DNA from: a virus
Taxonomy: Duplodnaviria > Caudoviricetes
Length of the DNA stretch: 64,000 nucleotides
Virus record (IMG/VR): IMGVR_UViG_3300043432_000485
Location: 96,001-160,000 of that record
Reading direction: 5' to 3' (one strand)
Shown in pieces: positions 1,532 through 17,632 of the stretch. The position numbers were made by a program, and so were the translations under genes. The notes under the pieces were generated by a model, which saw only the letters and a list, made by a program, of their open reading frames with translations, made no database searches and was not told the origin of the DNA. Every line of letters begins with the position of its first letter. Positions within the stretch are counted from its first letter, which is position 1.

Positions 1532-3016
1532 TCAGAGCTGGAGAGCATCCATGTTATCCATGTTGTTTAGGAACTGATCGCAAGCATCCACGCTGAAGCC
1601 CTGTGGCTCGGATCGCTTGCCCGAGGCAATCCGACGTGGAGCCCAGTGCACATGGGCTTCGAACGGTTCGAATGCAGCGTTGTCACGGTTCTTCAGGTTC
1701 GAGAACTTGAGACGCCCCGAGTCCTTCAGCTCCTTGTTGAAGTAGGCAGCAGTGATCACATCCGCATCCTTCTCCGCGGAGTTAGCCCAGGACAGAGCGT
1801 TCATCTGGTAGATGCCGTCATTCTTGTCAGCTTCCTCTTTGCCGCTACGATTCGTCTGGAACAGCATCAGCACCGGCACCATCGCTCCCTTGTTGAAGTG
1901 GAGGGCCAGTTGCTTTGATGCGGTGATGATCGAGTTCATCTTGACCACGTGACTAGTGTCCTTGGACTCGGGGGTAACTAGCAAGCCGTAGTCGATGATC
2001 ACCATCCCCACCTCGAACTCCCTATTGAGAAGCTCCAGATTGGTCTTGATGTCTGACATCGTCCAACCCCTGTCCGGTATCACCAACTCATAGGTGCCGT
2101 ACGTGGGGTTGTTCTTGAAGTCCGGGCATACCACTTGAGTGTAGAATTTCTTCTGCTCGGGAGTCAGCTTGCCATCACGGATGTCACGATAGTCGAGGGG
2201 CTGGTATCCCTGAGCAAAGAACTTGGCATTAGCCGTGTGCAGGGCGTAGGCATTACGACGCATGATCGGCCGTGTCATTTCCAAGCTGATGAACACGATG
2301 TTGGTCTTGAACCTGGTGACCGCATTGTACGCCCAGTTGTTCGCGAACATCGTCTTACCGTGACTCGGAAAGGCGGCGTGAATCCACAACTCCCCCTTCT
2401 TGATGCCCTTGCACGCATCATCGATCTCGTTGATGCCACAGAGCACGCCGTACGAGCTACCCGGATCCGCTTCAGTCTTTTCGTACTCAGCCACCATCAG
2501 ATCTGCATCCTGTCGAATGTCTCCGTTCACCTGATCCCCTTGTTCCGGGATGAGGATCTCCTGTGACTTGCGATGAAAGTGCAGCACTGCCGCTTCAGCG
2601 CCTTTGACCACTTCCCCCGTCTTCTCGTCTTTGATCCCCTTGGTCAAGATCTCGTTGAACTCCTTCATAGCGACCCGGAGCTTCAAGCTGGCTTGCTCCT
2701 CCTGGATCGTCTTGAGGAGGTGCACGAAGTTCGTGCGTGCATACGGGCGCTCAGCCGAAATGTCATTGAGTCTCTCGATTGCCTCGATGCCATTGATGCT
2801 CTGGAAGTAGTCCTGCACCGACTGGGCCGATGGCATGTCGAAGTGCTGAGAGAAGAACCCTAACGCGAAGTTGTACAAGCTCTCATCATCGGGCCGTCCC
2901 CACTCCAAACGTCCAGCATCCACAGACCGGCGGAGCAGCTGAAAGTTACGAATGAGGTTCTCCGGGGACACCTCCTGATCGAACTCGATGATGGACCGCA
3001 AAAGACGCTTAATCAT
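1532..3016 (-). CDS. dnaB: Replicative DNA helicase, DnaB/SF4 family
   Basis: GIKKGELWIHAAFPSHGKT (Walker A), FISLEM (H1a), MVIIDYGLL (Walker B), QTNR, EKDAD and KNRD motifs appear in DnaB order. Confidence 0.9.
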   Translation of the reverse strand: MIKRLLRSIIEFDQEVSPENLIRNFQLLRRSVDAGRLEWGRPDDESLYNFALGFFSQHFDMPSAQSVQDYFQSINGIEAIERLNDISAERPYARTNFVHLLKTIQEEQASLKLRVAMKEFNEILTKGIKDEKTGEVVKGAEAAVLHFHRKSQEILIPEQGDQVNGDIRQDADLMVAEYEKTEADPGSSYGVLCGINEIDDACKGIKKGELWIHAAFPSHGKTMFANNWAYNAVTRFKTNIVFISLEMTRPIMRRNAYALHTANAKFFAQGYQPLDYRDIRDGKLTPEQKKFYTQVVCPDFKNNPTYGTYELVIPDRGWTMSDIKTNLELLNREFEVGMVIIDYGLLVTPESKDTSHVVKMNSIITASKQLALHFNKGAMVPVLMLFQTNRSGKEEADKNDGIYQMNALSWANSAEKDADVITAAYFNKELKDSGRLKFSNLKNRDNAAFEPFEAHVHWAPRRIASGKRSEPQGFSVDACDQFLNNMDNMDALQL

Positions 3017-3018
3017 GC

Positions 3019-3903
3019 TCAGTCCTCATCCATGCTGGGCAGAGAGGTTCTGGTTGGAGCCCGGCCTCCCCACGCCCTCTTGTTGTACGACTTGCGGGGC
3101 TTGGACGTTGGGAACCGGGGCTTCACTTCGGTAACGGTGGTAGTCAGCTTTTCCGGACCATCGTCCATGGACACTGCCCCCTCCTCGAAGATCCTAGCCA
3201 CCTCTTGAGTCTCCTTCTGGTTCTGAGCCACTTCTTCAGCGTCCGTACCCAGATCGATGACTTCAAACTCGGAGTCAATGTAGTTTCCAAGGTCGTAGCT
3301 ATACGCCTGATGGCCGTCTCCGAAAGTGGTACCACTTTCAGCAATCCAGACCGGCTTACTGAAGGCTTCCCGCACCATCAACGCTTGTTGCAGCACCCCT
3401 GCCATCGCCTTGTTCTTAGTAGTGAGCATACCTAGCCGGATGATCAACAGGGTGGGGTGAGAGACCAGGTCATCAAGACTGTTGTTCGTCTCAACCTCGT
3501 CGCGCTGACTCGCCGACCTCGCTTTGTAGGACTCCTTGCCGAGCCACACATCCAGCAGCCGAGCATCACCGACGATCTTGTATGTGAACCCTGGATTGGC
3601 CATTCTTTTACCGGTCAGCACCCAACGAAGATGCCGACACAGCACGGACCAACTGCCTTTGATGAAGAGATTCTCGGTGGTACGGTCACCGATCTCCTCC
3701 CCGTGTTCGTTGAAAGAGGGCATATACAGGTCACTCTTGATGTGCCGAGAGAAAAAGATCTCCGCACCCAGGTAGTCCTGATGACGCTTACGCTCCAAGC
3801 AAGAGCATGGGATAGGGACTACCCGATCTCCCTCCAGCTTGTACGACCATTGTGCGCCATGGCACTTCTGGCACCCGGATTTACTTGGCTTCTGTTCGGT
3901 CAC
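3019..3903 (-). CDS. DnaC/IstB-like helicase loader with degenerate ATPase motifs
   Basis: N-terminal CQKCHG...PCSC zinc motif as in DnaI/phage DnaC-like loaders. NLFIKG marks the Walker A position, LLIIRLG the Walker B position, and REAFSKPVWI matches R...KPTII. It lies directly upstream of dnaB. Confidence 0.65.
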   Translation of the reverse strand: MTEQKPSKSGCQKCHGAQWSYKLEGDRVVPIPCSCLERKRHQDYLGAEIFFSRHIKSDLYMPSFNEHGEEIGDRTTENLFIKGSWSVLCRHLRWVLTGKRMANPGFTYKIVGDARLLDVWLGKESYKARSASQRDEVETNNSLDDLVSHPTLLIIRLGMLTTKNKAMAGVLQQALMVREAFSKPVWIAESGTTFGDGHQAYSYDLGNYIDSEFEVIDLGTDAEEVAQNQKETQEVARIFEEGAVSMDDGPEKLTTTVTEVKPRFPTSKPRKSYNKRAWGGRAPTRTSLPSMDED

Positions 3904-5672
3904 AACTTCTTCTGTACACCAGTGGTTCGAAGGCTACGTTGCAGTTCTTGCGTGAAGCTGGACTCGCCTTTGAAATCCAGAGCGCCTACCGCGGCTTCCC
4001 CTAAGACCTTGTCAATCAAGTCCTTCTTCTTTTGGAGAATGGCCAGCGTGTAGTGGTCTATCGTCTTCCGTTCCTTCCCTACCCGCGGGCGTTCGGCAAC
4101 AAGATGCACAGCAACAACCTTCTCATGCGGAGACCCGATGCGGATGGGGCGTCCAAGCAACTGAATGTAGTTGCCCCATGACCAAGGGGCGTTGTAGAAG
4201 ATCATTGCCGACGCCGCTTGGAGGTTGATTGCCTCACTCCCTGCATCACTGATGAAGATCACCTTGACCTTGGACTTGAGGTCCTGGAACTTCTGCTGGG
4301 CTTTCAGCCGGGCGGGGTTCTTCTTGGTATCGACTACACCCCCGGTGACCGCCACGCTCTCGATGCCTTGCTTCTTGCACAGCTCCTGCAGTCTCGGGAT
4401 CAAGCTGGCAAAGCGGCAGTACACGATCACTTTTTCATCATCGAACTCTTCCGCAAGCAGATCCAAAAGGGCTTGCTCTTTGGACCCCGTGGCGGTGACC
4501 TCTGCGGCCTCGCTGAACACGTCCAGGTCGATCAAGTCTCCCTCTCCATAGCGGAGCAAGGAAAGGGAGTCCACAGTCTTCTGACAGTAGATGAGGGCTA
4601 CCAAAGCCTTGTGCTCTTCGTACTCCTTGAGTTCCCCGTCCCCCAGCGCAATCACGCCAGATAGGGCCTCTGAGTACTTGGCATCCTCGGCCGCTGACAT
4701 GGTGACCTGCACTTCTCGGGTCGTGAGCTTGGGCAGCTCGTCCGAAATGATATGCTTGGCCCGTCCCAAGAAGAATGGATCGATGCGCGCACGGAAAGCT
4801 TCCAGGTTCTTGTACCCCACCACGATCGGAATCTTGCGTCCACCAGATACACTCTGGAGCTTCGTGACGCAGTAGTCTCGTAGGAATGCGGACTTGGTTG
4901 TGAAGACCTGAGGGTAAATCACCTTGTAGATCGAGAAGCCCTCAATCAGGTTGTTCTTGAGCAGCGTTGCGGTGAGTCCGTAGCAACGATTCGCCCGAGC
5001 GGATAGGTCCCCACAGACCTGCCAGGTTTTCGTGCGATCCGATTTGAACGCCGTGGCCTCATCAAACACTACGGTCAGGTCAGGAATCTTGGACGTGATC
5101 CTATCCAGCAATCCCGGAGTGATGATCCCCTTGGGGTCAGGCTGCCCATTTGGCAGCAAGGGGATGATCTGCCCCGCGTTCCAGTCCCTTACCAGCGGGG
5201 CGTAACCGATCATCATCACCGCTTTGGTCGGTCCCTTGTGAAGAGCAAACTCAAGATAGGTTTGCTTTCTCTCCATAGGGGTGCCGTCCACGATGTAGAC
5301 GGTGATCCCCGTAGAGAACTTGTCGATCTCAGCCGCCCATTGACGCAGGGCAGACTTGGGGCACACCACGATAGCCTTGTTGTTGGGCTCCTTCTCCCAC
5401 GTGTAGCAGAGAGCCGCGATGACCATCAAGGTCTTGCCAACCCCCGTCGCATCCCCAAGGACCATCCGCTTCATTGCCAGCAGGTGGTAAATTGCTTGCA
5501 CCTGGTAGTAGCGTAATCGGAACGGCTGGGAGGTCCCGTCCAGCCCCACGAACTCTGAGCGCAGCATCGAGGTAGGCTTGAGAGCAACAGTTTTGCTCTC
5601 CCGCACCTTCTTCAGAGTCTCGTAGACTCTGGCATGCTTATCGACCACATCTTCTTTAGGAGCAGCTGCCAT
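3900..5672 (-). CDS. SNF2-family (SF2) helicase/ATPase
   Basis: LRYYQ, LGDATGVGKT, VVCPKS, VFDEA, LTATLLKN, EAINLQAAS, APWSWGNYIQLLGRPIRIG. Confidence 0.92.
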   Translation of the reverse strand: MAAAPKEDVVDKHARVYETLKKVRESKTVALKPTSMLRSEFVGLDGTSQPFRLRYYQVQAIYHLLAMKRMVLGDATGVGKTLMVIAALCYTWEKEPNNKAIVVCPKSALRQWAAEIDKFSTGITVYIVDGTPMERKQTYLEFALHKGPTKAVMMIGYAPLVRDWNAGQIIPLLPNGQPDPKGIITPGLLDRITSKIPDLTVVFDEATAFKSDRTKTWQVCGDLSARANRCYGLTATLLKNNLIEGFSIYKVIYPQVFTTKSAFLRDYCVTKLQSVSGGRKIPIVVGYKNLEAFRARIDPFFLGRAKHIISDELPKLTTREVQVTMSAAEDAKYSEALSGVIALGDGELKEYEEHKALVALIYCQKTVDSLSLLRYGEGDLIDLDVFSEAAEVTATGSKEQALLDLLAEEFDDEKVIVYCRFASLIPRLQELCKKQGIESVAVTGGVVDTKKNPARLKAQQKFQDLKSKVKVIFISDAGSEAINLQAASAMIFYNAPWSWGNYIQLLGRPIRIGSPHEKVVAVHLVAERPRVGKERKTIDHYTLAILQKKKDLIDKVLGEAAVGALDFKGESSFTQELQRSLRTTGVQKKL

Positions 5673-5689
5673 CGATGACAGCTACACCA

Positions 5690-6889
5690 TCACTTGAGGG
5701 TAGCTGCTGTTTCCTTCAACGTCTGGACCACTGAGTCAGGCAAGCTCTTGGCGTTATCTGCGAACCAGTTGACCAAGAGGAGTCCCTTGCCTCCGCGGAG
5801 ACGGTTCAGGTTCTTCTTTCCACCCTGGTGCCAGTAGGTGCCGAACACCAGCTCTGGGGCCTTCTTGCCGCCAACCTTGTAGCCAAGGAATGCTTGCGTG
5901 TCCTTCTCATCCAAGTCGTGATCTTTTCCGTTCACAACCACGGTCACCTTGAAGAAGTCACCATGGTACTTGCCACCCCAGAAATTGCTGCTGGAGTGAG
6001 GCTCCTCATAGTACCCCGGAGCCGATTGGTAGCCGATCATGCCGCGGAGCTTTAGCTCGATCACATTCTTTCGGTTGGCAACCGACGGGGCGCTACCTTC
6101 TACCTGGCCGCTCTCCACCAACCAGTGCTTGATGGACGTGGAGTTCCCAGGAGGAAGCTTCTCTCCGAACTTCCAGTCCTTGGCGTCCCGCACCTTGTTG
6201 TTGAACTTACCCTCGAACTCAAGCTCGCCGTGATAGAACTTGAGGGCCTTGGTCACCTGTGCGGTCAGCCATGCGGGGTTCTGACTCTCTTTGGCAGGGT
6301 CTTTGATCACGTAACGGAAGAGCTGGATGCCCCAGATGTCTTTGTTGGGGACTGCTGACCCCATTGAGAATTCGCGCTTGTAGTAGACGGCAACCACGAA
6401 TAGATGCAGGTCAACCTTTCGGCCGTAGGCCACGAATGCCGATTTGTTGGACGAGGATTCATCCCCGTAGAAGTTCATCGGGCTGCGTTGCCACTCGGTT
6501 ACGAACTGCCACTCGACGTCGCTCGGGACCTTGGCTTCAGCCTTGGCCTTGTCGAACGAGATGACGACCGGTTCAGGAGCTTTCTGTTGGCCACCGCCAT
6601 ACCAATGCTCATCATCCTGAGGACCCGGCCTGGATGGAGAGCCGGGAGCCGGACCCGTTTCCAGAGGCTTGGCGGGGGCATTCTTCAGGAAATCGAACGC
6701 CCGGTTCACGTCCTGCATCTTCTGGATGGATCCACCCCTATCCGGATGTGCTTCGAGCGCCTTAGTTCTCTGAGCAGCTTTTAGCTCATTGAGGGACGGG
6801 TTGGCATTGGGAGGGAACCCCAATGCCTTGAGGGCGTCCTCTCTGGTAAGGTCCAAAATCCGCGCTTCTCTGAAATCGTAGCTTGCCAT
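5690..6889 (-). CDS. J-domain (DnaJ-like, class C) protein with an unrecognised C-terminal domain
   Basis: ALKALGF...ELKAAQRTKALEAHPDRGGSIQKMQDVNRAFDFLK is a J-domain with intact HPD. A Pro/Gly linker and ~290 aa of unassigned sequence follow. Confidence 0.85.
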   Translation of the reverse strand: MASYDFREARILDLTREDALKALGFPPNANPSLNELKAAQRTKALEAHPDRGGSIQKMQDVNRAFDFLKNAPAKPLETGPAPGSPSRPGPQDDEHWYGGGQQKAPEPVVISFDKAKAEAKVPSDVEWQFVTEWQRSPMNFYGDESSSNKSAFVAYGRKVDLHLFVVAVYYKREFSMGSAVPNKDIWGIQLFRYVIKDPAKESQNPAWLTAQVTKALKFYHGELEFEGKFNNKVRDAKDWKFGEKLPPGNSTSIKHWLVESGQVEGSAPSVANRKNVIELKLRGMIGYQSAPGYYEEPHSSSNFWGGKYHGDFFKVTVVVNGKDHDLDEKDTQAFLGYKVGGKKAPELVFGTYWHQGGKKNLNRLRGGKGLLLVNWFADNAKSLPDSVVQTLKETAATLK

Positions 6890-6893
6890 TACC

Positions 6894-7328
6894 CTAGATC
6901 TCGAAGTAGTGAGTTAACCGCTGCCCTGATTCAGGCCACTGACGTTCAAACACAGTGGTGTTGGATGCTGTGACCCCAAGGGACTCCCCGATAATGGCTA
7001 TCGCCAATTGAGCATTGAATGCCTTGCAGCTGAAAGCATCCAAGCTGAACTTCCCCTGAAGGGGCCACGTGTGGATGGAGATGTGACTGGTGCTGATCAC
7101 CTGAAGCATGGACGTCCCGCCCTCATCCTCAAACGTCCCGGTCCGCTTGACGCGCTCCAATACAGAGGGGTCAACTGGCACTTCATAGAACATCGCCTTG
7201 TCGAGAGGCGTCATCTCAAGGGCTAAAATCAGCTTTGAGAACATGATTTCCAGACGTTCGCGTTCGAACACCTGGGGGTCAAGTACTAAGCCATCCATCA
7301 GGACATGCAGTCCAGCCGAGCGAGTCAT
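6894..7328 (-). CDS. Divergent pyruvoyl-dependent S-adenosylmethionine decarboxylase-like protein
   Basis: GLHVLMDG...GGTSMLQVISTSHISIHTWP...SLDAFSCK. The SH.SIHTWP self-cleavage motif and the catalytic Cys are kept. There is Thr before the pyruvoyl Ser and a ~20 aa insertion. Confidence 0.85.
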   Translation of the reverse strand: MTRSAGLHVLMDGLVLDPQVFERERLEIMFSKLILALEMTPLDKAMFYEVPVDPSVLERVKRTGTFEDEGGTSMLQVISTSHISIHTWPLQGKFSLDAFSCKAFNAQLAIAIIGESLGVTASNTTVFERQWPESGQRLTHYFEI

Positions 7329-7359
7329 TCAAGCTCCAAAGCAAGAGGGTCCTACAGGA

Positions 7360-7959
7360 TCACCACAAAGAGAAACCTACCCCGATATAGGGGCTGGAGC
7401 GCCACGTTCCCCAAGTCAGACCGTAGCCGATGTACAGCGTAACGTTCTTGGTCAGATCAAAGCCTACCCCTAGACCTACCGATCTGACGCCTACAAACGC
7501 ATTGAGGTTAGCCCACCGGTAGTAGAAACCCTCTACCAGAAGCCCGCCGTCCAAGGCGTCATAAGACTTCACCCCGGAACGAAACAGTTCGGCGCCCATA
7601 ACCCCAAAGGTAGCTTTTAGCCGCAGCCGGAAGCCCCACGTTGGCTCTACCCGCTCCGCCACAGAAAGGGTGAGGTTGGTCTTGGCGTCCAACTTGTAGT
7701 TGCACCAGTCCATGTGGACTGTATACGGGAGGTCCCCGGTGCCTGAGCCATATACTCGGCCCATCCGGTCTGTGACAATGGTAACACCGTCCGCCGTTAC
7801 GACAGGTTGCGTCTCAGCACGACACTTATGCTCCCGCGCGAGCTGCAAGAACGTCTGCAAGTCGCCCTTTGAAACGCATGTTCCTTGCGGACACACGTCT
7901 TGGGCAACGGCCATGATCGGCAAAAAAAGGAGGAAACATACAGTGAAGAACCGAGTCAT
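7360..7959 (-). CDS. Exported protein with C-terminal amphipathic beta-strands (outer-membrane beta-barrel-like)
   Basis: Sec-type signal peptide (MTRFFTVCFLLFLPIMAVAQ), four Cys in the N-terminal part, about six alternating hydrophobic strands, and a terminal aromatic beta-signal-like YIGVGFSLW. Confidence 0.65.
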   Translation of the reverse strand: MTRFFTVCFLLFLPIMAVAQDVCPQGTCVSKGDLQTFLQLAREHKCRAETQPVVTADGVTIVTDRMGRVYGSGTGDLPYTVHMDWCNYKLDAKTNLTLSVAERVEPTWGFRLRLKATFGVMGAELFRSGVKSYDALDGGLLVEGFYYRWANLNAFVGVRSVGLGVGFDLTKNVTLYIGYGLTWGTWRSSPYIGVGFSLW

Positions 7960-8585
7960 TGTGTCCCCGTTCTACGCTTGGCGGCGGCTTTGCAAGAAGC
8001 ACTGATCTTAGCCTTCTGCTCGTCACTATGCTTGTACCCCATGTGAGCTTTAGATAGTGCCTCAACTTGCTCTGGCGTGCGTACCTTGCCCTTATTGGCA
8101 ACGGAAATCTTCCTCCTAGTCTCTAATGACTTGGGTCTGCCTACATTCGAAGCGATCAGCTTGGCCAGGTGATCAGGGGATGTCGTCACGTTCTTCTTGG
8201 CAGCAGACATACTAGCCCTGTGATTGTCGGACTTTTTACGTCCCATCAGAGCCCGAGAGATCTTCTGCCGAGTCTCAGGAGTCAAAGTCTTGCCACCGTG
8301 CCCACCGGCATCCAGGTTGTATCCAAATGACTGCTGATTTGAATGCAATCTAGAGATCCAATGCTTCTCTGCAACTAAGGCGTCGTCCTCGGATGAGAAC
8401 TCAGCGACCACTTCGAATGTGAAGTTGCCCACCCCGTGCTTCTTGAGTGCAGATGCTATCACTGACCTAGGATGCTCAGATTTGGAGTTGAACACGTGAT
8501 TTCTCCACCTCTTCTTGGGGTTGTTAGCCTTTCCAACATAGGACTTCTGGTTCAGAAGATTGGTGATCACGTAAACGCTCGACAT
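7956..8585 (-). mobile_element. Free-standing GIY-YIG homing endonuclease with NUMOD3 repeats
   Basis: VYVITN...SYVGKA, R..H, EKHWI..L, GYNL, followed by about six NUMOD3-like units (LTPETRQKIS ... HSDEQKAKIS). Confidence 0.9.
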
Positions 8586-8587
8586 AA

Positions 8588-9115
8588 CTACGAGTATTTC
8601 TTGAGCAGGTCGTCCACGTGCTGGGCGCTGATGCCGGAAGAATCCTTGACCGTCACCGCAAACTTACCAGGCTGGACCACCACCACGTGCTCCACGTCAT
8701 TGGCTTTTACGCCTACCGGAAGAGCCACCTCTACCGGCTTACTGGCGCCCGGAGGAGTGAACTTCACGGTATCCGGATTGCTGAATATGCCGGGAGATTG
8801 GATCGCCACCACAGCGGCTTGAGTCATGCCTTTGGAATCAGCCTGCCCGACAGGGATCAGCTGACCTTTGGTGTCCACTCGGCCCGCCGGGATAGAGTTG
8901 GCGGTATCGATCGCCGTGTGGTCAGGGGCCTTCTTGCCAAGCAGCAAGCCAATCAAGCCCCCGACCTGGACGTTCTTCATACCCAAAGCAGCCGCGATCA
9001 CCGCACCAGCCACCAGGAGGATCACGCCTACCGGCCCGAGCAGCACATGGGCTACCTTCTTGGCTCCGGCTAGAAACTTGTCCCAGAATCCTGGTTGAGG
9101 TGCGGTGTCAGTCAT
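8588..9115 (-). CDS. Membrane-anchored protein with one N-terminal TM segment
   Basis: Hydrophobic LLGPVGVILLVAGAVIAAALGM preceded by KK, followed by a soluble beta-rich domain. 4-nt overlap with the holin-like gene. Confidence 0.7.
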   Translation of the reverse strand: MTDTAPQPGFWDKFLAGAKKVAHVLLGPVGVILLVAGAVIAAALGMKNVQVGGLIGLLLGKKAPDHTAIDTANSIPAGRVDTKGQLIPVGQADSKGMTQAAVVAIQSPGIFSNPDTVKFTPPGASKPVEVALPVGVKANDVEHVVVVQPGKFAVTVKDSSGISAQHVDDLLKKYS

Positions 9116-9522
9116 TTGCTTGGATCCTTGGGGGGTTGAGACGGTGGGCTGATGGAGTCATCTACACCGGGGAGGTTGATGTCGATCCCTTCTTTCTTGG
9201 CCAAGCCCTTCAAGAACTCGTAAGCCCACACAGAGAGCGCTCCCGCAAGTGCGAAGTAGCCCATGCTCGCCGGAAGAGACGTGATGCCCGCTTCCGGGAC
9301 CCGCCAGATCGCTCCAACGGCCATTCCAACCGCTATCGGATGCAGGGGGAGAGTCTTGCGACCCCACCAGAAAAACCACAAGGGTTTCTTGGTCTTATAG
9401 GCGTCTTTCGTGAAAATGACGTTTTTCACTACTTGCCCGATAATCATGAAGATCGCCAAAGCCGAAATAAACGGCCAATGGGGTAACACATTGTCGGTGA
9501 TTATCTTAACGGTCTCATCCAC
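9112..9522 (-). CDS. Putative holin (about 3 TM segments)
   Basis: Start moved from the track's 9597 to GTG at 9522 (GAGAGG 6 nt upstream). 136 aa with three hydrophobic segments and a charged/Pro-rich C-terminus, located after the last fibre gene. The CDS is well supported; the holin function is inferred. Confidence 0.55.
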   Translation of the reverse strand: MDETVKIITDNVLPHWPFISALAIFMIIGQVVKNVIFTKDAYKTKKPLWFFWWGRKTLPLHPIAVGMAVGAIWRVPEAGITSLPASMGYFALAGALSVWAYEFLKGLAKKEGIDINLPGVDDSISPPSQPPKDPSK

Positions 9523-9523
9523 A

Positions 9524-9545
9524 GGGCACCTCTCTCCAAGTGCCC
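9524..9545 (-). promoter_or_regulatory. Stem-loop overlapping the ribosome-binding site of the holin-like gene
   Basis: Minus strand GGGCACTT-GGAGAG-AGGTGCCC is an 8-bp stem (one G:U) ending 1 nt before GTG at 9522. Confidence 0.5.
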
Positions 9546-9560
9546 CTATATAGGAGGAAA

Positions 9561-9755
9561 CTAAGTACTTTTGACTGGTAACGTCCCGGCTTCCCATTTG
9601 GCAATCCGGCGTAGCAGCTCTGAGTACTGATCCCGCAGCTCTCTAGAAAGTGTGGGGTCAGCCAGAGCAGCTTGATACCGTGCCCTGGCTGCCATAGCGC
9701 TTAACTTCCGCTGGTGAATGGGAAGCTCAATATACGTGGCTCTTTGGAGAGTCAC
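9561..9755 (-). CDS. Small hypothetical protein
   Basis: 64 aa, fills the gap 3 nt after the 1460-aa gene, plausible helical sequence. Confidence 0.6.
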   Translation of the reverse strand: MTLQRATYIELPIHQRKLSAMAARARYQAALADPTLSRELRDQYSELLRRIAKWEAGTLPVKST

Positions 9756-9758
9756 CGA

Positions 9759-12700
9759 TCAGCTCCTTTGCGAGAGCTGGATCGCAGACGGATCCAGCTG
9801 CAGCCGGACGTTGTTGCGAACGAGGGGGTGCCCCTCGATGCGATACAAGTCCGCCGCCGAGTATCCCTCCCCAGCACCATTCGTGCTGATCGTGACAAAC
9901 CCCGGAGTTGGGTTAGGAGCGATCGCGGCCGGACGCTGGGCAGTGGTCACCACCAGCAACATCAGCTCGTCTCCGGCTGACACTTCAGAAGCTCCGACGT
10001 TGGTGACGAAGTTCCTAACCAACATGGCTCGGCCTTGGAGCAGATTGCAATGTGTCGTCTGTGCAACCACCGCTTGGTTCTGCAGCGAAAGAGTCCCGCC
10101 GGGGTGAGAACCGTTCGCTGTGAACACCGAGCCGCCTCGATAGACACGGTAGTTGGTGAGCAGACTGAAGTCGCCCTGCTCTCCATCGACATGCACGAGC
10201 AAGTCGCCTGGGGAACCGACACCACTGGAGCCAGAATCTAGGATGACCTCATCCTGCTCCAGCTGATGGCTCGCGGCCAAGCCCGTAGCCGGACCGACAC
10301 CCACGATATCTGAGTAGAGCAGAGGCGCGGGGGTAGGACCAAAGCCCTGACCTCGGAAGTCCTTGTCACGGAACAACCCGCCAAGAGGCAGGCGCTCTGT
10401 GCACCCAAGATACTCGGTGCCAATGCTTGTCACGTCATTGGTAGAGAAGTTGCCAGCGAGAACCTGAGGACGCGGGGCGACGCCAGAGTTGGGTGGGAAC
10501 ACCGCTGGGTCTTCATAGGCTACATCCCTGAAGTCCAACGCGTTCAACACCGCATCAGCCGAGTAGCGACCAGTACCCAAATCGGTGCTGAAGCTAGTGG
10601 CAGCCACCACCTCCAACAGTTTCTGATTGGGGCGAGTCAAAGCATCCGGGTTCAACGGGGTGGCTAGCTGGAACGCTCTCTGAGATTGGATCGGCCCATA
10701 AGAGTACGGGAGATCCGTGTAGCTGGTCTGGCTTCCCCAGGCATCTCCCTGATACACAGTGCGGCTGTAGTTGATCAGGATCTGATCCGACTGTTCAGCC
10801 GGTCCAGGAAGAACACCGGACACGCTAGCTACAAACTTGTTGATGTTGGCGTCTCGGCCTACCTGAGTGCCCGCTACGTTGACGTTACCAACGCCACCGG
10901 CCACGGAACTCCAACCATTGACGGTCTGAGGACGTGTCAGGACGAGACGGAACTCCTTGCTCACGTCGAAGGAGCCACGATCGAAACCGAACACTACAGC
11001 CTCGACCACGTATGTCCCTAGATCGAAGCTGGAGATGGGCGTCGGTGCTTTGGTGATGTCGATTGCATTAGCATTGAGGATGAAAGTAGAGTCTCCATCC
11101 GCATCAATCTCGATCCACATGGCCGGACCATCGTTTGGACCCATGGCTTGACGCAGGAGGTTGACTGCAGTTCCCACGCCGCCCGTTTGACGGGTATCCG
11201 TGAAAGGACTGCCAGCGACCGCATAGTCGCTTGCTTGGTAGACACCCATGATGCGCGAGACGCCATAGAAGGGAGGGAACTCCAGGCCCTTGCGATTCAA
11301 GCCACGTGTATCGGTGAAGAACCTGATACCGGCCCACAGATTGCTCTCTGTTCCAGTTACCGCGGTGTTGTAGGAGATTGGAGTAGTGTACGGGGTGATA
11401 GCAGTAACCTGACTGAACACCGAGTACTCATTCGAACCGCTGCCACCGTTGAAATAGGCGGCGTAGTTGCTCTGAACGGAGGCTCCGCTTGCACTGCGGA
11501 TCACATAGTTGATGCCGCTTACGAATGAAGCCGAGTCCACCGGGAGGATCGGGGTCCGGACTTCACCCCAACCTGGCACCAGGTACCTCGGAAGCGTCAC
11601 GTAGACACTCTCGTAGGACAGATTTGCAGGCCCGGTGAGGCTGGCCGACGTCCCGCAAAACAAACCTAGGGGATCGGTTTGAGTCCACTTGGAGGCGCCA
11701 TTGACATCACCCAAGGGCATGCAGCCCTGAGCGCTGTGGATCGTGAATGCTAGAGAAGTGCCCGACGGTACCAGGATTGGCCGATCAACCGTGATGGTCA
11801 CGCCCGGGGTGATGGCAGTGATCGTGTACGAACCTGTTCCTGGGCCGCTTGCGATGATCAAGGCGTCCCGTACTGCTGTAGTACCGGTTGGGCCAACGTT
11901 GATCACACGCCCGTTGGCCGAAGCCGCGGTGCCAGAGGTGACTACGCTACCTGCCTTAACCGCCGGAACGGGATTGGCTGCAATACCATCGATTGTGAGC
12001 GGAGTCGGGAAGTCGATGCGTCGGAAGGGAGTGACAATCAGCGTCTTGCTGCCAAGGTCAGCATACGTCTCCGCCGTAACAGGAAGGGCACCATTCAGAG
12101 GGGCTGGACGGTACTTGCTCCACAGAGGAGCCCATGCGACCTGCGCGCTCTTGTTGTTCGTGGGGATCCCAGACTGCTTGGTCATCAGGTCCGTTGAGGG
12201 GGACAAGAACGAGACCGAGTGTAGTGAGTCTGGACGCCGAGAGAGCCCGCGGCCAGGACCGTACACGACGTGCGCCCTGATGTGCAGCAGCTTAGGCGTA
12301 GGAGACGTGTTGGTCTGGTTGGCGAAGAACGGAGACAAGAAGGTGATGGTCAGATCATCGGTCGGTGTCGGGTTCGCCGGAGTGACCGAGTACATGGTTG
12401 TGGGGATGTCCCCCGTCTCACCATCGAAGCGAAGGCGAACCGCACCTGACACGCTATCGTTCAGCCAGCGCACCTGATCGGTAGAACCTGCCTGTAGACC
12501 ACCCTTGAGCTGGTTCACAGGGAGCACAATCGTATCGAGAGCCGTGAACTGTCCACCAACACTCTGCAAGGTCGTATTGACCACTAGGCCAACCGAGAAA
12601 CCAGAGACGTTGATCGGGGTTCCTGGACCCGGAGCCACGCTTGTGCCATGCGGCTGTGCAATGCACTCCACTGGCTGAATCGTAGCCGCGTCTGAGAATA

Positions 12701-14141
12701 CGGTGCGGATGTTGTCAGGGGCGTCGAGCTTGGTGACACCCATAGACACGGCCGCCGACGTGATCGAATCCTGGTAGTGGACGTACGAACCGCGAGGTCC
12801 GCCACCGGATAGCTTCCAGTTGGCGCGCAGCTGTCCGCGCAAGAGCTTGTCCAGATTGCTCTTGAGCAACGCCTGGTAGTCGAACCCGTTCGGATTGACG
12901 ACGTGACGCAAATCCAAAATGTCCGAGTTAGCGATCTGATCCGAGAACAACCCATCGGGCCGCGAGGAGATCACTTTGACGGTTGCGCCAGCCTTATGGG
13001 CCTCTGCCACTGTGCCGTTAGACCCTCTGCTACCAGCCACGATGTTGAGCGTGGTACCGGTGATGGACGAGTAGGTCATCAGCTCGTCTCCGATCTGGAT
13101 CAGCACAGGAGTCGCAGGGCTGGCTGGCAGCGGGATAGCTGTCACAGAAGCCAAGGTCATCGTGAGAGCCGTAGACGTGACGGCAGAGGCCAATGAAGGC
13201 GTCGTCGAGAACGTCTTGATCCCCGTGCGATCAACCGCCGTCGGATTCCGGTTGAAGCCGCCGTTCAGGTTCTGGCTTGGGTTGCCATTCCAGGTGACCG
13301 AGTTGCGGCGGAACACAGCCGCCATGGGGACCGCGTAGACGTAACCGTCGACTGTGCCCAAAGCATTCTGAGTTCCATCACCAGCGCGCCACAATCCCGG
13401 GTCCCCGAGCGTCTGGCGCATGTTGGCGAAGGTATACGACGTCGGTGTTGCGGCGGCGCCTTGGCCCTTCACAACAACCGGGTCAAAGCCGTCAGGGTTG
13501 TTGGAGAAGCCCACCAAGCCCTTGACCACACGAATACGGTATTGCACCTGGACACGCTGATTGGTCTCATACCCAAACGCCGGGTCAACCAGGTCATCAG
13601 CCAAGAAGCTGTTGCCGCCTTCAACGTTACCGTTGCGATAGATGGCCGAAGCCGCGGGCTTGTTGGTCACCGACGGGTTGGGCTGCACGCGCACCTTGAA
13701 CACTTCAAGGAACACGAAGTCGATCCGGAAGTCACCACTGGCCGCCGGAGGAGGGTCCAACGCAATGATGTTGGTGGTGTCGACGTTGTTGGGGCTGCCA
13801 GGGGGAGAGCCAGTCTTGGTGGCCGTCACAGGAATGAGATACCCCGCAACGTTGGCCCACATCACTCCGCGCTGCTCGCCTGAACGCTGAGGTCCAAACT
13901 TGAAGAAATTTGACCAGGTTGGGTTGGTCAGATAGCACGCCTGCAGATTGGTTTCGTTACCCAAGAACCCCGAGGGGAGCCCACGTAGCACAGAGCTTCG
14001 AACAGCGTCGATCCCCAGCTGTTGCATCAATAGGAGTTCCGAGTCTGTCGGCGGCTTACCTTGCTGCCAAATGGTAGTGACGTATTGGGTGTCGTCTGAC
14101 AGCAATACCCTGGATACCCCCGGGCCGAAGTTATCGCTCAT
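9759..14141 (-). CDS. Large tail fibre/baseplate-anchored structural protein, paralogue of 22089..24707
   Basis: 1460 aa, Thr/Ser/Gly/Val-rich. N-terminal WQQGKPPTDSELLLMQQL resembles DUF6519/DUF4815-type fibre anchors. About 300 aa are shared with the 872-aa protein. Confidence 0.8.
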   Translation of the reverse strand: MSDNFGPGVSRVLLSDDTQYVTTIWQQGKPPTDSELLLMQQLGIDAVRSSVLRGLPSGFLGNETNLQACYLTNPTWSNFFKFGPQRSGEQRGVMWANVAGYLIPVTATKTGSPPGSPNNVDTTNIIALDPPPAASGDFRIDFVFLEVFKVRVQPNPSVTNKPAASAIYRNGNVEGGNSFLADDLVDPAFGYETNQRVQVQYRIRVVKGLVGFSNNPDGFDPVVVKGQGAAATPTSYTFANMRQTLGDPGLWRAGDGTQNALGTVDGYVYAVPMAAVFRRNSVTWNGNPSQNLNGGFNRNPTAVDRTGIKTFSTTPSLASAVTSTALTMTLASVTAIPLPASPATPVLIQIGDELMTYSSITGTTLNIVAGSRGSNGTVAEAHKAGATVKVISSRPDGLFSDQIANSDILDLRHVVNPNGFDYQALLKSNLDKLLRGQLRANWKLSGGGPRGSYVHYQDSITSAAVSMGVTKLDAPDNIRTVFSDAATIQPVECIAQPHGTSVAPGPGTPINVSGFSVGLVVNTTLQSVGGQFTALDTIVLPVNQLKGGLQAGSTDQVRWLNDSVSGAVRLRFDGETGDIPTTMYSVTPANPTPTDDLTITFLSPFFANQTNTSPTPKLLHIRAHVVYGPGRGLSRRPDSLHSVSFLSPSTDLMTKQSGIPTNNKSAQVAWAPLWSKYRPAPLNGALPVTAETYADLGSKTLIVTPFRRIDFPTPLTIDGIAANPVPAVKAGSVVTSGTAASANGRVINVGPTGTTAVRDALIIASGPGTGSYTITAITPGVTITVDRPILVPSGTSLAFTIHSAQGCMPLGDVNGASKWTQTDPLGLFCGTSASLTGPANLSYESVYVTLPRYLVPGWGEVRTPILPVDSASFVSGINYVIRSASGASVQSNYAAYFNGGSGSNEYSVFSQVTAITPYTTPISYNTAVTGTESNLWAGIRFFTDTRGLNRKGLEFPPFYGVSRIMGVYQASDYAVAGSPFTDTRQTGGVGTAVNLLRQAMGPNDGPAMWIEIDADGDSTFILNANAIDITKAPTPISSFDLGTYVVEAVVFGFDRGSFDVSKEFRLVLTRPQTVNGWSSVAGGVGNVNVAGTQVGRDANINKFVASVSGVLPGPAEQSDQILINYSRTVYQGDAWGSQTSYTDLPYSYGPIQSQRAFQLATPLNPDALTRPNQKLLEVVAATSFSTDLGTGRYSADAVLNALDFRDVAYEDPAVFPPNSGVAPRPQVLAGNFSTNDVTSIGTEYLGCTERLPLGGLFRDKDFRGQGFGPTPAPLLYSDIVGVGPATGLAASHQLEQDEVILDSGSSGVGSPGDLLVHVDGEQGDFSLLTNYRVYRGGSVFTANGSHPGGTLSLQNQAVVAQTTHCNLLQGRAMLVRNFVTNVGASEVSAGDELMLLVVTTAQRPAAIAPNPTPGFVTISTNGAGEGYSAADLYRIEGHPLVRNNVRLQLDPSAIQLSQRS

Positions 14142-15043
14142 GGTGTTGTCCTCTGATCTGGTTCATGGGTGTCAACTTGATGGTTCATAGGGAGTTTCTT
14201 GAAACGCGGCATACCCAAGCGTTTCCTATACAGGTGCACACTGGCCTTGGATACACCGAATAAATCTGCCACATCAGTGTCTAGCATCGTTCCGACTGAG
14301 CTGTGCCATGGCCGTAGCGCAGGAACTTGAAGGCGCGGTTTAAATGCAGAGATCTGGGACTGAGGGCTCCCAACCACTCGGAGTTTCCATACCCTGTTTA
14401 CCGTAGAGGGGTCCGTTCTAGGAGTGGGGGTTCTCTTTTGGGTCCGTTCTCGATGACAATTAGCGCACACTACTTCACACTTAGCCGCTTCATCTAAAAT
14501 CTTCTGTCTGCTTCTCATGTGGGGGACAGGTCCTACGCGAATCCCGCGTACATGATCAAAATCCATCTGGCAGAAATGAAACGATTTGCCACAGTCAAGG
14601 CACGGATGGGACTTGAGTTGAATGACCAATCTCCGACGACTATCTTCCCACTTGGTACCAGGAACCCACGTCCTTAAGCGATGACAACAAACACAAACCA
14701 CGTCACATTTGGCAACCTCTTCTAGGATTGTCCTCCACGGAGAATTGCTCTTATTGATCAACTGAGAAACCTCATGGAGCTTGTTGGCGGGGTTCCGGTG
14801 ATCAAAATCCATCACATGCGGAGGGAAAGAAAGTGCGCAGTCCGCACAAGGGACTGACTTCAGAACATCGATGGCTGCATGGCGTTCTAGCTTCTTACGT
14901 CTTTGGGCCTCAGAGTTTTTAGTGTAGCGGGTATCTTTCCTGGCATGTTGTTGCAGGGATTCACATATTCGGCAGATCCGCCTATGCTTACGGAAGTTGA
15001 TCCCCTCTACTCCGCACTCACGGCATTGTCGATTTTCCGCCAT
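14138..15043 (-). mobile_element. Endonuclease with two tandem HNH domains and a C-terminal HTH
   Basis: Two copies of CxDC..F...MDFDH...KC.VVCxxCHR.RT, an N-terminal CxxC/CxxC, and DVADLFGVSKASVHLYRKRLG (HTH). Start moved to ATG 15043 because the track's TTG at 15073 lies inside a terminator U-tract. Visibly more AT-rich than its neighbours. Confidence 0.8.
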
Positions 15044-15071
15044 CCTTCTCAACCTACACCACACGTCAATC

Positions 15072-15105
15072 AAAGAAAAAGGGCCAGCCGGATACCGACT
15101 AGCCC
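15072..15105 (-). terminator. Rho-independent terminator
   Basis: Minus strand GGGCTAGTCGG-TAT-CCGGCTGGCCC (11-bp stem with two G:U pairs) followed by TTTTTCTTT, 25 nt after the stop of 15131..17080. Confidence 0.85.
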
Positions 15106-15130
15106 CTCCTCATGCCTAAAGCCTAAGGAC

Positions 15131-17080
15131 TCAGTGCGGATGCGCCGCTACCCAGTCAGATATAGCACGGGCTTTATGAGCGGACGTGATAGCTTGCCCC
15201 GTGGAGCTGTAGCTACCCCAAGCGCTGCCACTCGTCCACGTTCCATACAGGGTGTAGATGTTGCAAGGACCGTTCAGCTTGGCTGACAGCTGGTCCAGCA
15301 TGTACTTGTACGCGTCGTAGCTCTGAGGATTGTTCGAGAACTTGTCCGCGTTCGTGTAGTACCCACCACCCAGCTCATAGCAACCCGTCATGGGGATGCC
15401 ATAGGTCTTTGCATCGCGGGTGATGTTGGCTACGGGCTCCCCTGATACCATCCGATCCACGTCAGCCTTGAAATCGGCGAGCATTGTGGAGGATGCCCCG
15501 TCTTTGCCGCCGCCCGGATACGGGGCCGAGGCCAAGAGGTCAATCTTCTGGCTCGTTGGATTCCAGGTGCTCGACTTGTACACGCTAGCCAAAGCCTGAG
15601 TGCTGAGGTCAAGATTTCCGGAAGTAGAGAACACCCGGATCACTTTGGTGCCCATTGCAGGCTGCCCGAAGATGTTCTGGAAGATCTGGTACATCTGAAG
15701 CGCACGGTACATCTCCCAGGCAATGCCCTGGTAATACTGGTTGCCGCCCGGTAGACCCTTTGCGGCGCCTTGCGAGTTGGCGTACCCGAACTGGCTGAAC
15801 TGGCCGTTCCAAACCTCATTGGACAGCTCGATGTAGACCTTGTGATTGCTGGAGATCCGCTGATTGATGAGCGTCGCCATTTGCAGGATGTAATCGTCGG
15901 TTGCCTGCACAGGAATGTTAAACCAGCAGTCCACGTTTCCGCGGTTGCAAAGGTCAATCTGCCACTCGATCGCCACCCCAGGGGTCTTGGGCGGGGTGTT
16001 CGGATCCATGTAGGCCGCCGAGGCATTGCCCGGATCGGTCGGCAAGCGCCGCTCGCTCCAGTTCTGAATGCCGCTCCAGTTGGTGTTGTTCAGGTCCATC
16101 ATACGGAACACCGAGTAGTTCTTGAGATCGGACAAGAACTGGGGATTCCAGATGTTAACGCCCGTGGAATAAGCGGTTGCCCAGTTGATTCCACTGACCA
16201 TCAGATTGTTTCCCGTCCAGCTCCCCTGGAACCAGCTCTGAGTGCCTACTGAGAAGCCCGTGGAAGGAGCGACTCCGCCGCCAGAGCCTCCCGAGCCACC
16301 AGCCCCACCGGCGCCCGCTCCGCTAGAGCCTCCGATACCACCAGCTCCCCCAGAACCTCCGACTGGAGGAACAACAGCCGTAACGTTGAAGAACACGCTA
16401 GCGCCGTCATGCCATGCGCCAACCGAGTCCTGATAGGTCGGATAAGCTTCCCATTTACCAACGACGTCAGCCGTTGTGAAGGTCCGCGTCCCCGTGAGGG
16501 GTGCGGATCCATTTGCTGCAATGGTCGTCGCACCCAGAGTCGGCAGCATATCATCGAAAGGCCCACCAGAGTGCGTGGCGCCCGGTGCCCGAATGGCAAT
16601 CACGACCTGCTGCACGCTGATCGGAGCACTCGACGTGTTTCCGTAGGTGACCTTCCCGGTCAACGTTTGGCCTTGAGCCAATGTCGCCTTGTCGAGCGAC
16701 AACGCGGACGAAACCACGATCCCGCCCTGACCCGATGAGCCACCTTGCCCGGCCGAGCCCGCAGCACCTGCAGAGCCCCCAACCCCGCCGGCACCAGCCA
16801 CTGAGCCGCCTGCTCCTGCAGATCCAGCGACACCACCGGATCCACCTTTACCAGCTGAGCCCGCGACTCCAGCCGAACCGGCGCTTCCGCCCTGCCCAGC
16901 TGAACCAGCGACGCCACCGGATCCACCTGCACCGCCCGCGCCACCTGAACCACCTACCACGTAGGGGCAGATCATGACGGGATAGCAGGCATTCTGTTGT
17001 GCACTAACGACACCCTTGTAACCAAGGAATGCGGCTAGCGCGATCCCAAGAGCTAGAATCACGTTTCTTGTTTTGTTCAT
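15131..17080 (-). CDS. Secreted putative glycoside hydrolase (TIM-barrel, 'cellulose-binding domain protein'-like family) with Gly/Ala/Ser linkers and an Ig-like domain
   Basis: Signal peptide, two GGSGGAGG linkers around an Ig-like domain, then FRMMD..N.N.S...GVAIEWQIDLCN...WFNIP...DDY...YIELSNEVWN and GCYELGG (candidate acid/base and nucleophile Glu). Confidence 0.7.
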   Translation of the reverse strand: MNKTRNVILALGIALAAFLGYKGVVSAQQNACYPVMICPYVVGGSGGAGGAGGSGGVAGSAGQGGSAGSAGVAGSAGKGGSGGVAGSAGAGGSVAGAGGVGGSAGAAGSAGQGGSSGQGGIVVSSALSLDKATLAQGQTLTGKVTYGNTSSAPISVQQVVIAIRAPGATHSGGPFDDMLPTLGATTIAANGSAPLTGTRTFTTADVVGKWEAYPTYQDSVGAWHDGASVFFNVTAVVPPVGGSGGAGGIGGSSGAGAGGAGGSGGSGGGVAPSTGFSVGTQSWFQGSWTGNNLMVSGINWATAYSTGVNIWNPQFLSDLKNYSVFRMMDLNNTNWSGIQNWSERRLPTDPGNASAAYMDPNTPPKTPGVAIEWQIDLCNRGNVDCWFNIPVQATDDYILQMATLINQRISSNHKVYIELSNEVWNGQFSQFGYANSQGAAKGLPGGNQYYQGIAWEMYRALQMYQIFQNIFGQPAMGTKVIRVFSTSGNLDLSTQALASVYKSSTWNPTSQKIDLLASAPYPGGGKDGASSTMLADFKADVDRMVSGEPVANITRDAKTYGIPMTGCYELGGGYYTNADKFSNNPQSYDAYKYMLDQLSAKLNGPCNIYTLYGTWTSGSAWGSYSSTGQAITSAHKARAISDWVAAHPH

Positions 17081-17091
17081 GGAGTCCTACC

Positions 17092-17113
17092 GAAGAGGTT
17101 TAGAAGAGGTTTA
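17092..17113. repeat. Perfect 11-bp tandem repeat (GAAGAGGTTTA x2) between speD and the hydrolase gene
   Basis: Read directly at 17092-17102 and 17103-17113. Confidence 0.8.
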
Positions 17114-17563: not shown

Positions 17564-17632
17564 CTCACGGGCCTCCAAGTTACAGGGTGAAACGTACAAA
17601 GAGATCAAGGTGCCCGATGAGACGGGGTCCGC

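Follow-up and report, generated by a model that had tools for sequence, protein, structure and literature searches.

The stretch of viral DNA analysed here (hereafter the window; 64,000 nucleotides) spans bases 96001-160000 of the 203-kb IMG/VR record IMGVR_UViG_3300043432_000485, a member of the Caudoviricetes with a CheckV completeness of 43%. Between a gene for a long fibre-like protein and a set of replication genes it encodes the two proteins that are our main subject, p175 and p199, together with a holin-like neighbour, p136, all three named for their lengths in amino acids (aa). The minus strand carries every large gene of the window, and start and stop codons of consecutive genes abut or overlap throughout the region. 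Read along the minus strand, with models from AlphaFold2 (AF2), signal peptidase I abbreviated as SPase I and a slash marking signal-peptide cleavage, the region contains:

9759-14141, minus strand: fibre-like gene, 1460 aa
9561-9755, minus strand: soluble 64-aa Arg-rich helical protein (GTG start, AAGGAG Shine-Dalgarno sequence, no hydrophobic segment)
9112-9597, minus strand: membrane-protein open reading frame (ORF) as first listed, 161 aa
9112-9522, minus strand: p136, holin-like small membrane protein (GTG 9522 start from homologue alignment and Shine-Dalgarno sequence)
8588-9115, minus strand: p175, predicted bitopic inner-membrane protein (hydropathy, positive-inside rule, AF2 model)
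7956-8585, minus strand: GIY-YIG/NUMOD3 homing endonuclease, 209 aa (Pfam, PHROG)
7360-7959, minus strand: p199, predicted secreted protein, 199 aa
7903-7959, minus strand: p199 signal peptide, residues 1-19 (AVA/QD cleavage, SPase I type)
7639-7902, minus strand: p199 N-domain, predicted periplasmic, residues 20-107 (AF2 model, Cys conservation)
7360-7638, minus strand: p199 C-domain, residues 108-199 plus stop codon (six amphipathic strands, AF2 model)

Past p199 the minus strand continues with genes for an S-adenosylmethionine (AdoMet) decarboxylase, a J-domain protein, SNF2, a helicase loader and DnaB.

p175 and p199 are genuine genes that travel together. We compared eight loci (the window, L002, L003, L004, L005, L011, L017 and the P0110 contig), and in all eight the two are neighbours that follow a fibre-like gene of ~1300-1530 aa and precede replication genes. 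In L003, L004, L011 and L017 they either abut or share 4 nt, and in L005 they form a single fused gene. An earlier reading of the window from its letters (the sequence-only reading) had described the membrane-associated genes as consecutive; this holds for p175 and p199 in the relatives, where they abut, and fails in the window, where a free-standing GIY-YIG/NUMOD3 gene (7956-8585; Pfam GIY-YIG E 2.4e-14, NUMOD3 E 3.8e-14; PHROG 314 E 1.9e-42) sits exactly between them. Because this gene is absent from the p175/p199 junction in L002, L003, L004, L011, L017 and the P0110 contig, i.e. in all relatives examined, we regard it as a mobile insertion and not as part of the system.

Conservation of the pair is that of core genes. 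Relative to the window, p175 is 70% identical in L004, 60% in L002 and 53% in L003, and p199 is 69%, 58% and 44% identical in the same three loci; this is comparable to DnaB (74% in L004, 55% in L002), with SNF2 at 85%, 69% and 59%. Both proteins are present in every relative examined, down to ~34% DnaB identity. Homologues of p136, p175 and p199 all come from metagenomes, many of them on contigs of 100-470 kb: for p199, 66 close homologues at 43-69% identity, and 120 cluster representatives when 1.84 billion proteins were searched exhaustively with its profile; for p175, 93 (49-77% identity); and for p136, 29. Searches of 50,697 GenBank phages by blastn and tblastn with the region, p175 and p199 gave no match, and profile searches of PDB sequences returned nothing. 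Profiles of p199 and p175 found no relative among GTDB representative genomes, and hence neither a cellular homologue nor a hint of the host was obtained. The nearest phage records by SNF2 similarity, LR745208.1 (485 kb, 38.6%) and Tunturiibacter phage Tunturi_5 (29.7%), contain no match to either profile, and the gene order upstream of SNF2 in LR745208.1 differs from that of the window.

The two proteins are also joined in nature, as one ORF in a sister clade. At least 10 of the 120 p199 representatives are in-frame fusions of 302-410 aa with the p199 region in the C-terminal half; a p175-like N-terminal half was seen in 8/8 fusions read, and the two that were compared with the p175 profile gave hhalign probabilities of 99.4% and 99.1%. 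As far as sequence can tell, these fusions tie p175 and p199 together functionally, and they suggest that the p175 C-terminus lies near the p199 N-domain. With the synteny in 8/8 loci, they bear out the earlier proposal that p199 is linked to an inner-membrane protein. At the junction, most fusions retain a hydrophobic segment and an AxA site, and in the L005 fused gene a TTG preceded by a purine-rich stretch might serve as the start of a separate p199. The P0169 fusion (335 aa) has neither an internal signal peptide nor the CxxxxC loop and QIGGLLG motif described below, and would join, in one polypeptide, an inner-membrane segment at the N-terminus to the barrel domain at the C-terminus; this is suggestive only, as P0169 comes from a 1.3-kb JGI contig.

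p199 carries an SPase I-type signal peptide, MTRFFTVCFLLFLPIMAVA/QD, and the AxA/Q site is kept across the family. There is no lipobox; the first mature Cys stands at +4, inside a CxxxxC loop. Of 39 relatives, 38-39 keep each of the cysteines 23, 28, 46 and 86, which implies two disulfides. An AF2 model from a 39-row alignment has a mean predicted local distance difference test score (pLDDT) of 87.7, reaching 93-97 over residues 110-199. Its N-domain has the CxxxxC loop and an amphipathic helix (31-49) together with short strands; the hairpin at 78-95, which has charged faces, also belongs to this soluble domain. The C-domain consists of six long amphipathic strands (108-121, 136-147, 150-157, 160-168, 173-182 and 188-197) and ends in ...YIGVGFSLW; the terminal residue is aromatic (F or W) in 38/39 close relatives. 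Family-wide mean Kyte-Doolittle (KD) values set a bulky hydrophobic strand face (+2.0 to +3.3) against a Gly/polar face (-2.2 to 0.0), and the latter bears invariant R111, R113, K115, E143, N151 and D168. Turns of 2-4 residues lie on one side of the domain and loops of 3-14 residues on the other, the first loop being variable, so that the modelled layout of strands, turns and loops is that of an outer-membrane barrel. The p199 sequence thus contains everything the sequence-only reading had listed for it (signal peptide, Cys-rich N-terminal part, about six amphipathic strands, aromatic end, no lipobox), and the confidently modelled C-domain agrees with the lipid-free outer-membrane-type anchor it had proposed.

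We compared p199 residues 109-199 exhaustively with known structures (VIA). The closest was 9xzt 'BBn6', a designed six-strand barrel (Z 9.3, root-mean-square deviation (rmsd) 2.4 Å, 80 aligned residues), followed by the designed transmembrane barrel 6x9z (Z 6.3, rmsd 2.9 Å, 80 aligned residues) and by OmpA, OmpW, NspA, OprF, KdgM and Tsx (Z 4-5, rmsd 2.9-4.9 Å, 63-87 aligned residues). Those Atlas and AFDB neighbours that bear names are outer-membrane barrel families (PagL, and OMP_b-brl models in Atlas), at low TM-scores. Foldseek against the PDB returned nothing at E<=1e-3, and neither p175 nor p199 matches a Pfam or PHROG family above threshold. Barrel families in Pfam (BBP7, DUF2490, Porin_4) hit p199 under the cut-off throughout and in few members; the match to PF07585 BBP7, a putative planctomycete porin, scores 20.7 bits against a gathering cut-off of 26 bits and appears at E<=1 in just 3/39 family members, and we take it as compositional.

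p199 offers six membrane-type strands, fewer than the eight or more of a single-chain barrel. Six strands are too few to close a conventional membrane barrel, so self-association is likely, and in this way p199 would complete its barrel. The even strand number would put the N-domain and the C-terminus on one side, the periplasmic one. An exported protein with a six-stranded outer-membrane-barrel-like domain and no lipid anchor implies a diderm host, as had been proposed.

p175, the presumed partner, has a single strongly hydrophobic transmembrane segment (TM) at residues ~21-45 (KD ~2.6; 2.5-3.3 across 45 relatives). Lys and Arg residues in these relatives average 3.2 in the N flank vs 1.6 in the C flank, a distribution that favours an N-in/C-out orientation. 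Directly after the TM, residues 47-62 (8930-8977, minus strand) form a near-invariant Gly-rich amphipathic motif, KNxQIGGLLGxLFGKK. The AF2 model (pLDDT 76.6) continues with a linker (~62-100) that is conserved but of low confidence, a small beta domain (100-156, strands within 101-156) and a short C-terminal helix (164-174). The description of a single-TM protein with a periplasmic-type domain is upheld. Fold searches with p175 (VIA wide, Foldseek PDB and Foldseek AFDB) produced helical-hairpin or weak OB-like rows, none above noise. Complex prediction for p175 (62-175) with mature p199 (20-199) gave ipSAE values of 0.27, 0.67 and 0.28, run without controls and with the median under the mark, and speaks neither for nor against binding.

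The KNxQIGGLLGxLFGKK motif recalls viral fusion peptides and cationic antimicrobial peptides, a likeness we mention as an idea only. Several other identities for p175 were considered and rejected. A signal-anchor-release (SAR) endolysin does not fit a TM this hydrophobic (KD 2.5-3.3) or the lack of a hydrolase-like domain, and an ExbB/ExbD or TolQ/TolR analogue made of p175 and p136 does not fit a p175 TM free of acidic residues and a p136 that is too small. An N-out/C-in p175, which would suit the fusions that keep an internal signal peptide, is disfavoured by the charge distribution and by P0169.

Relatives of p136 occupy the slot directly upstream of the pair in most loci, consistent with the holin-like gene that had been assigned to the cluster. 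Three hydrophobic segments, as first described for it, are indeed present (by hydropathy, one strong and two weak); the 161-aa extent is not retained, as homologues of 121-146 aa align from GTG 9522, which gives 136 aa. A Shine-Dalgarno sequence, GGAGAGAGG (9529-9537), lies 6 nt upstream of this GTG, which is most likely the start. An inverted repeat (9524-9545, minus strand; GGGCAC / GTGCCC, 10-nt loop) ends 1 nt before the same codon; its loop contains most of the Shine-Dalgarno sequence, and the repeat may control p136 translation. The first loop of p136 is very basic (KNVIFTKDAYKTKKPLWFFWWGRK) and the C-terminal tail is charged (K/D/E/P-rich) and Pro-rich, so that by the positive-inside rule its topology would be N-out/C-in, as in class I holins. 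The protein also has the general layout of that class: it is small, with TMs and a charged hydrophilic C-terminal tail, and its gene adjoins an envelope pair while endolysins are encoded elsewhere.

Searches of Pfam and PHROG found no family match for p136, holin families included, and a protein-language-model lead to Phage_holin_5 clusters is weak (0.85-0.86). In L005 and L011 the slot upstream of the pair holds instead a 2-TM protein with a charged tail; these two are 47% identical to each other, and the comparison of their family with p136 gives an hhalign probability of 0.4%. Judged by such comparisons, the occupation of one slot by two unrelated families of small membrane proteins appears to be the non-orthologous replacement typical of holins. 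The ORF at 9561-9755, which had been counted in the envelope cluster, drops out of it: it is a separate gene for a soluble 64-aa protein without a hydrophobic segment. Homologues stand in the same slot of L002, L003 and L004 (34-86% identity), the P0110 contig has none, and in most relatives the gene comes after the fibre gene; the protein probably lies outside the membrane module.

An endolysin had been reported missing from the window, and this is so; the genome at large has two candidates. One is a Phage_lysozyme protein (genome 54543-55091, minus strand; 33.2 bits vs a cut-off of 22.3) with a PHROG 7 'endolysin' match at E 2.4e-11 and an E-x8-D-x5-T motif, and the other a Peptidase_M15_4 protein (genome 56931-57446, minus strand; 40 bits vs a cut-off of 25). 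Both are encoded ~47-49 kb from the module with no adjoining membrane-protein gene, and since neither candidate has a signal peptide or TM, a holin would be needed for them to act. No spanin, whether of Rz/Rz1 type or unimolecular, emerged when all six frames of the 203 kb were scanned for lipoboxes, an absence that is weak evidence because the record is incomplete. The scan yielded just two credible lipoproteins, a 208-aa zinc protease and an 84-aa protein. The latter (MKTLSLIMVLGLVGC...; 59444-59698, from an internal ATG at 59444) belongs to an arrangement at genome 58992-59698 (plus strand) in which the gene for a TM-less 146-aa coiled-coil protein overlaps the lipoprotein ORF by 37 nt. Neither lipoprotein is part of a spanin pair: the layout at 58992-59698 resembles Rz/Rz1, but the inner-membrane anchor is missing; genome ORFs 8309-8830 and 7677-8273 likewise do not fit a canonical spanin.

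The explanation to which we lean, tentatively and at somewhat less than an even chance, is that the region is a T7-like fibre, holin and envelope-pair lysis module containing a barrel-anchored spanin analogue. It would form the envelope end of a late gene block, expressed late in infection, in a huge phage of a diderm host, with the endolysin encoded far off. p136 would build up in the inner membrane and permeabilise it, letting the soluble lysozyme and/or the M15 peptidase reach the wall. p175, held N-in in the inner membrane, would cross the periplasm by its conserved linker and small beta domain. p199 would be exported by Sec, disulfide-bonded, and inserted into the outer membrane by the beta-barrel assembly machinery (BAM) via its six-stranded domain, which would probably be completed by self-association; its N-domain would face the periplasm and meet the p175 C-terminus. 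Once the wall is degraded, the p175/p199 tether would disrupt the outer membrane, so that the pair would take the place of a spanin, anchored by a barrel and not by a lipid, the GIY-YIG gene between the partners being a selfish insertion. The complementary topology signals of the two proteins, a strong TM in p175 vs a signal peptide and a six-strand domain in p199, are predictions that support this account.

The arrangement resembles known lysis cassettes in some respects and departs from them in others. In T7, the gene 17 fibre is followed by the 17.5 holin and the 18.5/18.7 spanins, with the amidase elsewhere; here, too, the tail-fibre gene precedes the pair, which has a holin-like gene next to it and closes the putative late block, and the endolysin is encoded at a distance. 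As in two-component spanins (lambda Rz/Rz1, T7 gp18.5/gp18.7, T4 PseT.3/PseT.2), adjacent and translationally coupled genes encode a predicted N-in/C-out inner-membrane protein and an exported partner whose periplasmic parts together could span the periplasm. Unlike the Rz/Rz1 o-spanin, p199 has an SPase I signal and a six-stranded barrel-like domain, not a lipobox Cys and lipid anchor, and unlike the i-spanin, p175 has a flexible linker and a small beta domain, not coiled coils. As both of these features fail, the pair is not a member of the Rz/Rz1-type spanin family; it also lacks sequence similarity to spanins and is far more conserved. Fused p175-p199, above all P0169, would put one end in each membrane as does the unimolecular spanin T1 gp11, but with reversed polarity (TM N-terminal, outer-membrane anchor C-terminal), a beta domain instead of a lipid as anchor, and, in most fusions, an internal signal-peptide-like segment that is kept.

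Phages also place outer-membrane proteins beside their receptor-binding genes: T5 llp adjoins the receptor-binding gene, phi80/N15 cor lies beside tail genes, and lambda lom lies between J and stf. p199 resembles Lom, Llp and Cor as a predicted outer-membrane phage protein encoded beside a tail-fibre or receptor-binding gene; it differs from Lom, a monomeric 8-stranded Ail/Lom barrel, and from Llp and Cor, which are lipoproteins. Those three have no inner-membrane partner and are accessory, whereas p175/p199 is core across its clade, and p199 has no match to the Pfam Ail/Lom family at E<=0.1. Like trimeric autotransporter anchors and TolC, p199 has too few strands per chain for a closed barrel and an N-terminal soluble domain, though those proteins contribute 4 strands per chain vs 6; the 'autotransporter domain' AFDB hit of p199 has a TM-score of only 0.2, with no significant sequence or fold match.

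The nearest described object for p199 is the cyanophage six-stranded family PF24653 Phage_OMP (IPR056410, 'DUF680'), for which a 12-strand barrel formed by dimers is predicted and which occurs also in virion-assembly loci of huge phages (Yuan & Chen 2026, 10.64898/2026.10.24.761521). Shared features are the signal peptide, six amphipathic strands of ~100 aa, the terminal aromatic residue and the incomplete barrel; p199 differs in having, in addition, a disulfide-bonded periplasmic domain of 88 aa, and in its obligatory inner-membrane partner. At E<=10 the PF24653 hidden Markov model hits nothing in the genome, whereas it finds Syn9 and P-SSM2 at E 1e-32 to 5e-52, and hhalign of p199 with the Syn9/P-SSM2 members gives a probability of 4.7%, i.e. 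no detectable homology.

To our knowledge, the phiKT gp28 'disruptin' is the only known alternative to spanins. One preprint puts at ~15% the share of phages with Gram-negative hosts in which no spanin can be recognised (bioRxiv 10.1101/515445). A pair with natural fused forms in a huge-phage clade (contigs to ~470 kb) is a clonable candidate for another spanin-free solution. We regard as doubtful, while worth stating, the further-reaching proposal that a lipoprotein-free, barrel-anchored spanin forms a third outer-membrane-disruptor architecture, in which a self-associating partial barrel, coupled to the inner-membrane protein and in a sister clade covalently joined to it, would be inserted by BAM and the KNxQIGGLLGxLFGKK segment of p175 would perturb the membrane once the wall is gone. 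A receptor-masking device, if that is what the pair is, would be the first with an inner-membrane partner. On either reading there are two new protein families, of ~120 and at least 93 cluster representatives, and the six-stranded outer-membrane-type domain is relevant to BAM biology and indicates a diderm host.

Several observations weigh against a role in lysis. Pfam, PHROG and PDB profile searches found no homology of p136, p175 or p199 to any holin or spanin family, and the p175 model has no periplasmic coiled coil, the feature that drives spanin action. The pair is far better conserved than is usual for lysis proteins. Exclusion genes occupy such a place beside a receptor-binding gene just as typically, and on the P0110 contig (335 kb) the pair comes straight after the fibre gene with no holin-like neighbour. 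The signal-peptide-like segment inside most fusions is hard to reconcile with the topology of an N-in p175, unless p199 also starts internally. In the wider p199 family an aromatic end occurs in only 45 of 106 full-length representatives, with an aromatic-plus-one end in 35 more, mostly ...F-N. A canonical spanin could lie in the rest of the genome, the record being 43% complete, and a further small 3-TM ORF exists at genome 190700-191029.

Of the other explanations, we consider receptor masking or superinfection exclusion unlikely but serious. Here an outer-membrane p199, tethered or regulated by p175, would block the receptor or trans-periplasmic DNA-entry route used by the fibre, and the benefit would be a protected infected cell and progeny not lost on debris. 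The long fibre gene always has the pair directly downstream of it, much as the llp, cor and lom analogues lie beside receptor-binding or tail genes; within the p199 barrel domain, variation is greatest in the first predicted outward loop (122-135); and the one relative with a pair and no holin-like neighbour (the P0110 contig) fits as well. A preprint that counts 1,603 outer-membrane proteins (OMPs) of beta-barrel type in huge phages, and discusses a Lom-LamB block as a model, favours such roles (10.64898/2026.10.24.761521). Against this, exclusion genes are usually accessory and patchy, while the pair is in every relative and conserved like replication genes; known receptor blockers work alone, with no fusible inner-membrane partner; and holin-like genes flank the pair in most loci.

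It is distinctly less probable that p199 is an OMP with some other envelope role, as a small channel or in outer-membrane remodelling or stabilisation over a huge phage's long infection, with p175 as its chaperone or tether and p136 as a mere neighbour. The invariant R111, R113, K115, E143 and D168 on the non-hydrophobic face would then line a lumen or an interface, and six-stranded OMP-like proteins, predicted 12-stranded dimers, are reported from phosphate-uptake and virion-assembly loci, both unconnected with lysis, of huge phages and cyanophages. No locus has an adjacent transport gene, however, p199 is not detectably related to the cyanophage PF24653 family, and the coupling and fusion with an inner-membrane protein would be left unexplained. 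Very unlikely, in our view, is a p199 C-domain that stays out of the membrane altogether, as a soluble periplasmic small barrel or a virion or fibre-assembly factor whose OMP resemblance is compositional. Such a protein would account for a top structural match to the small designed barrel 9xzt (Z 9.3), the empty Foldseek search of the PDB at E<=1e-3, the barrel hits (BBP7, DUF2490, Porin_4) that stay below cut-off in few members, a strand number short of the at least eight of natural monomeric outer-membrane barrels, and the many distant members that end ...F-N, not in an aromatic residue. It would not account for strands of 8-14 residues with ~29 bulky hydrophobic residues on one face, far beyond a six-strand soluble core, nor for short turns on one side and longer loops on the other, nor for the aromatic end in 38/39 members of the close subfamily. 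Designed proteins aside, the structural neighbours with names are all outer-membrane barrels, and the signal peptide and disulfides speak against a virion part assembled in the cytoplasm.

Around the module the gene content varies. Two AdoMet-decarboxylase-family paralogues are encoded in the window (6894-7328 and 17111-17608, minus strand; Pfam E 1e-15 and 4e-38). The first, directly downstream of p199, is missing or substituted in some relatives: L003 has a 308-aa gene without a Pfam hit in its place, L017 has an aminotransferase, and in L011 the slot is empty. In L005, a distant relative carrying the fused gene, an insertion with genes for a response regulator and a histidine kinase (2041-3490 of that locus) separates the fibre gene from the membrane module. 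A 649-aa protein (15131-17080, minus strand) carries a signal peptide; its identity as a glycoside hydrolase is unconfirmed, because it has no Pfam or PHROG match at E<=0.01. A strong terminator-like hairpin (15075-15111; 17 pairs and a T run) follows this gene and is the only one within 5000-18000; otherwise, a scan for promoters and terminators gave counts at background.

Besides the GIY-YIG gene, an HNH endonuclease gene (14138-15073, minus strand; PHROG 3106 E 1.9e-41) separates the 649-aa gene from the fibre gene. In relatives, SNF2 or DnaB instead contains inteins or LAGLIDADG domains, and the clade is rich in selfish endonucleases.

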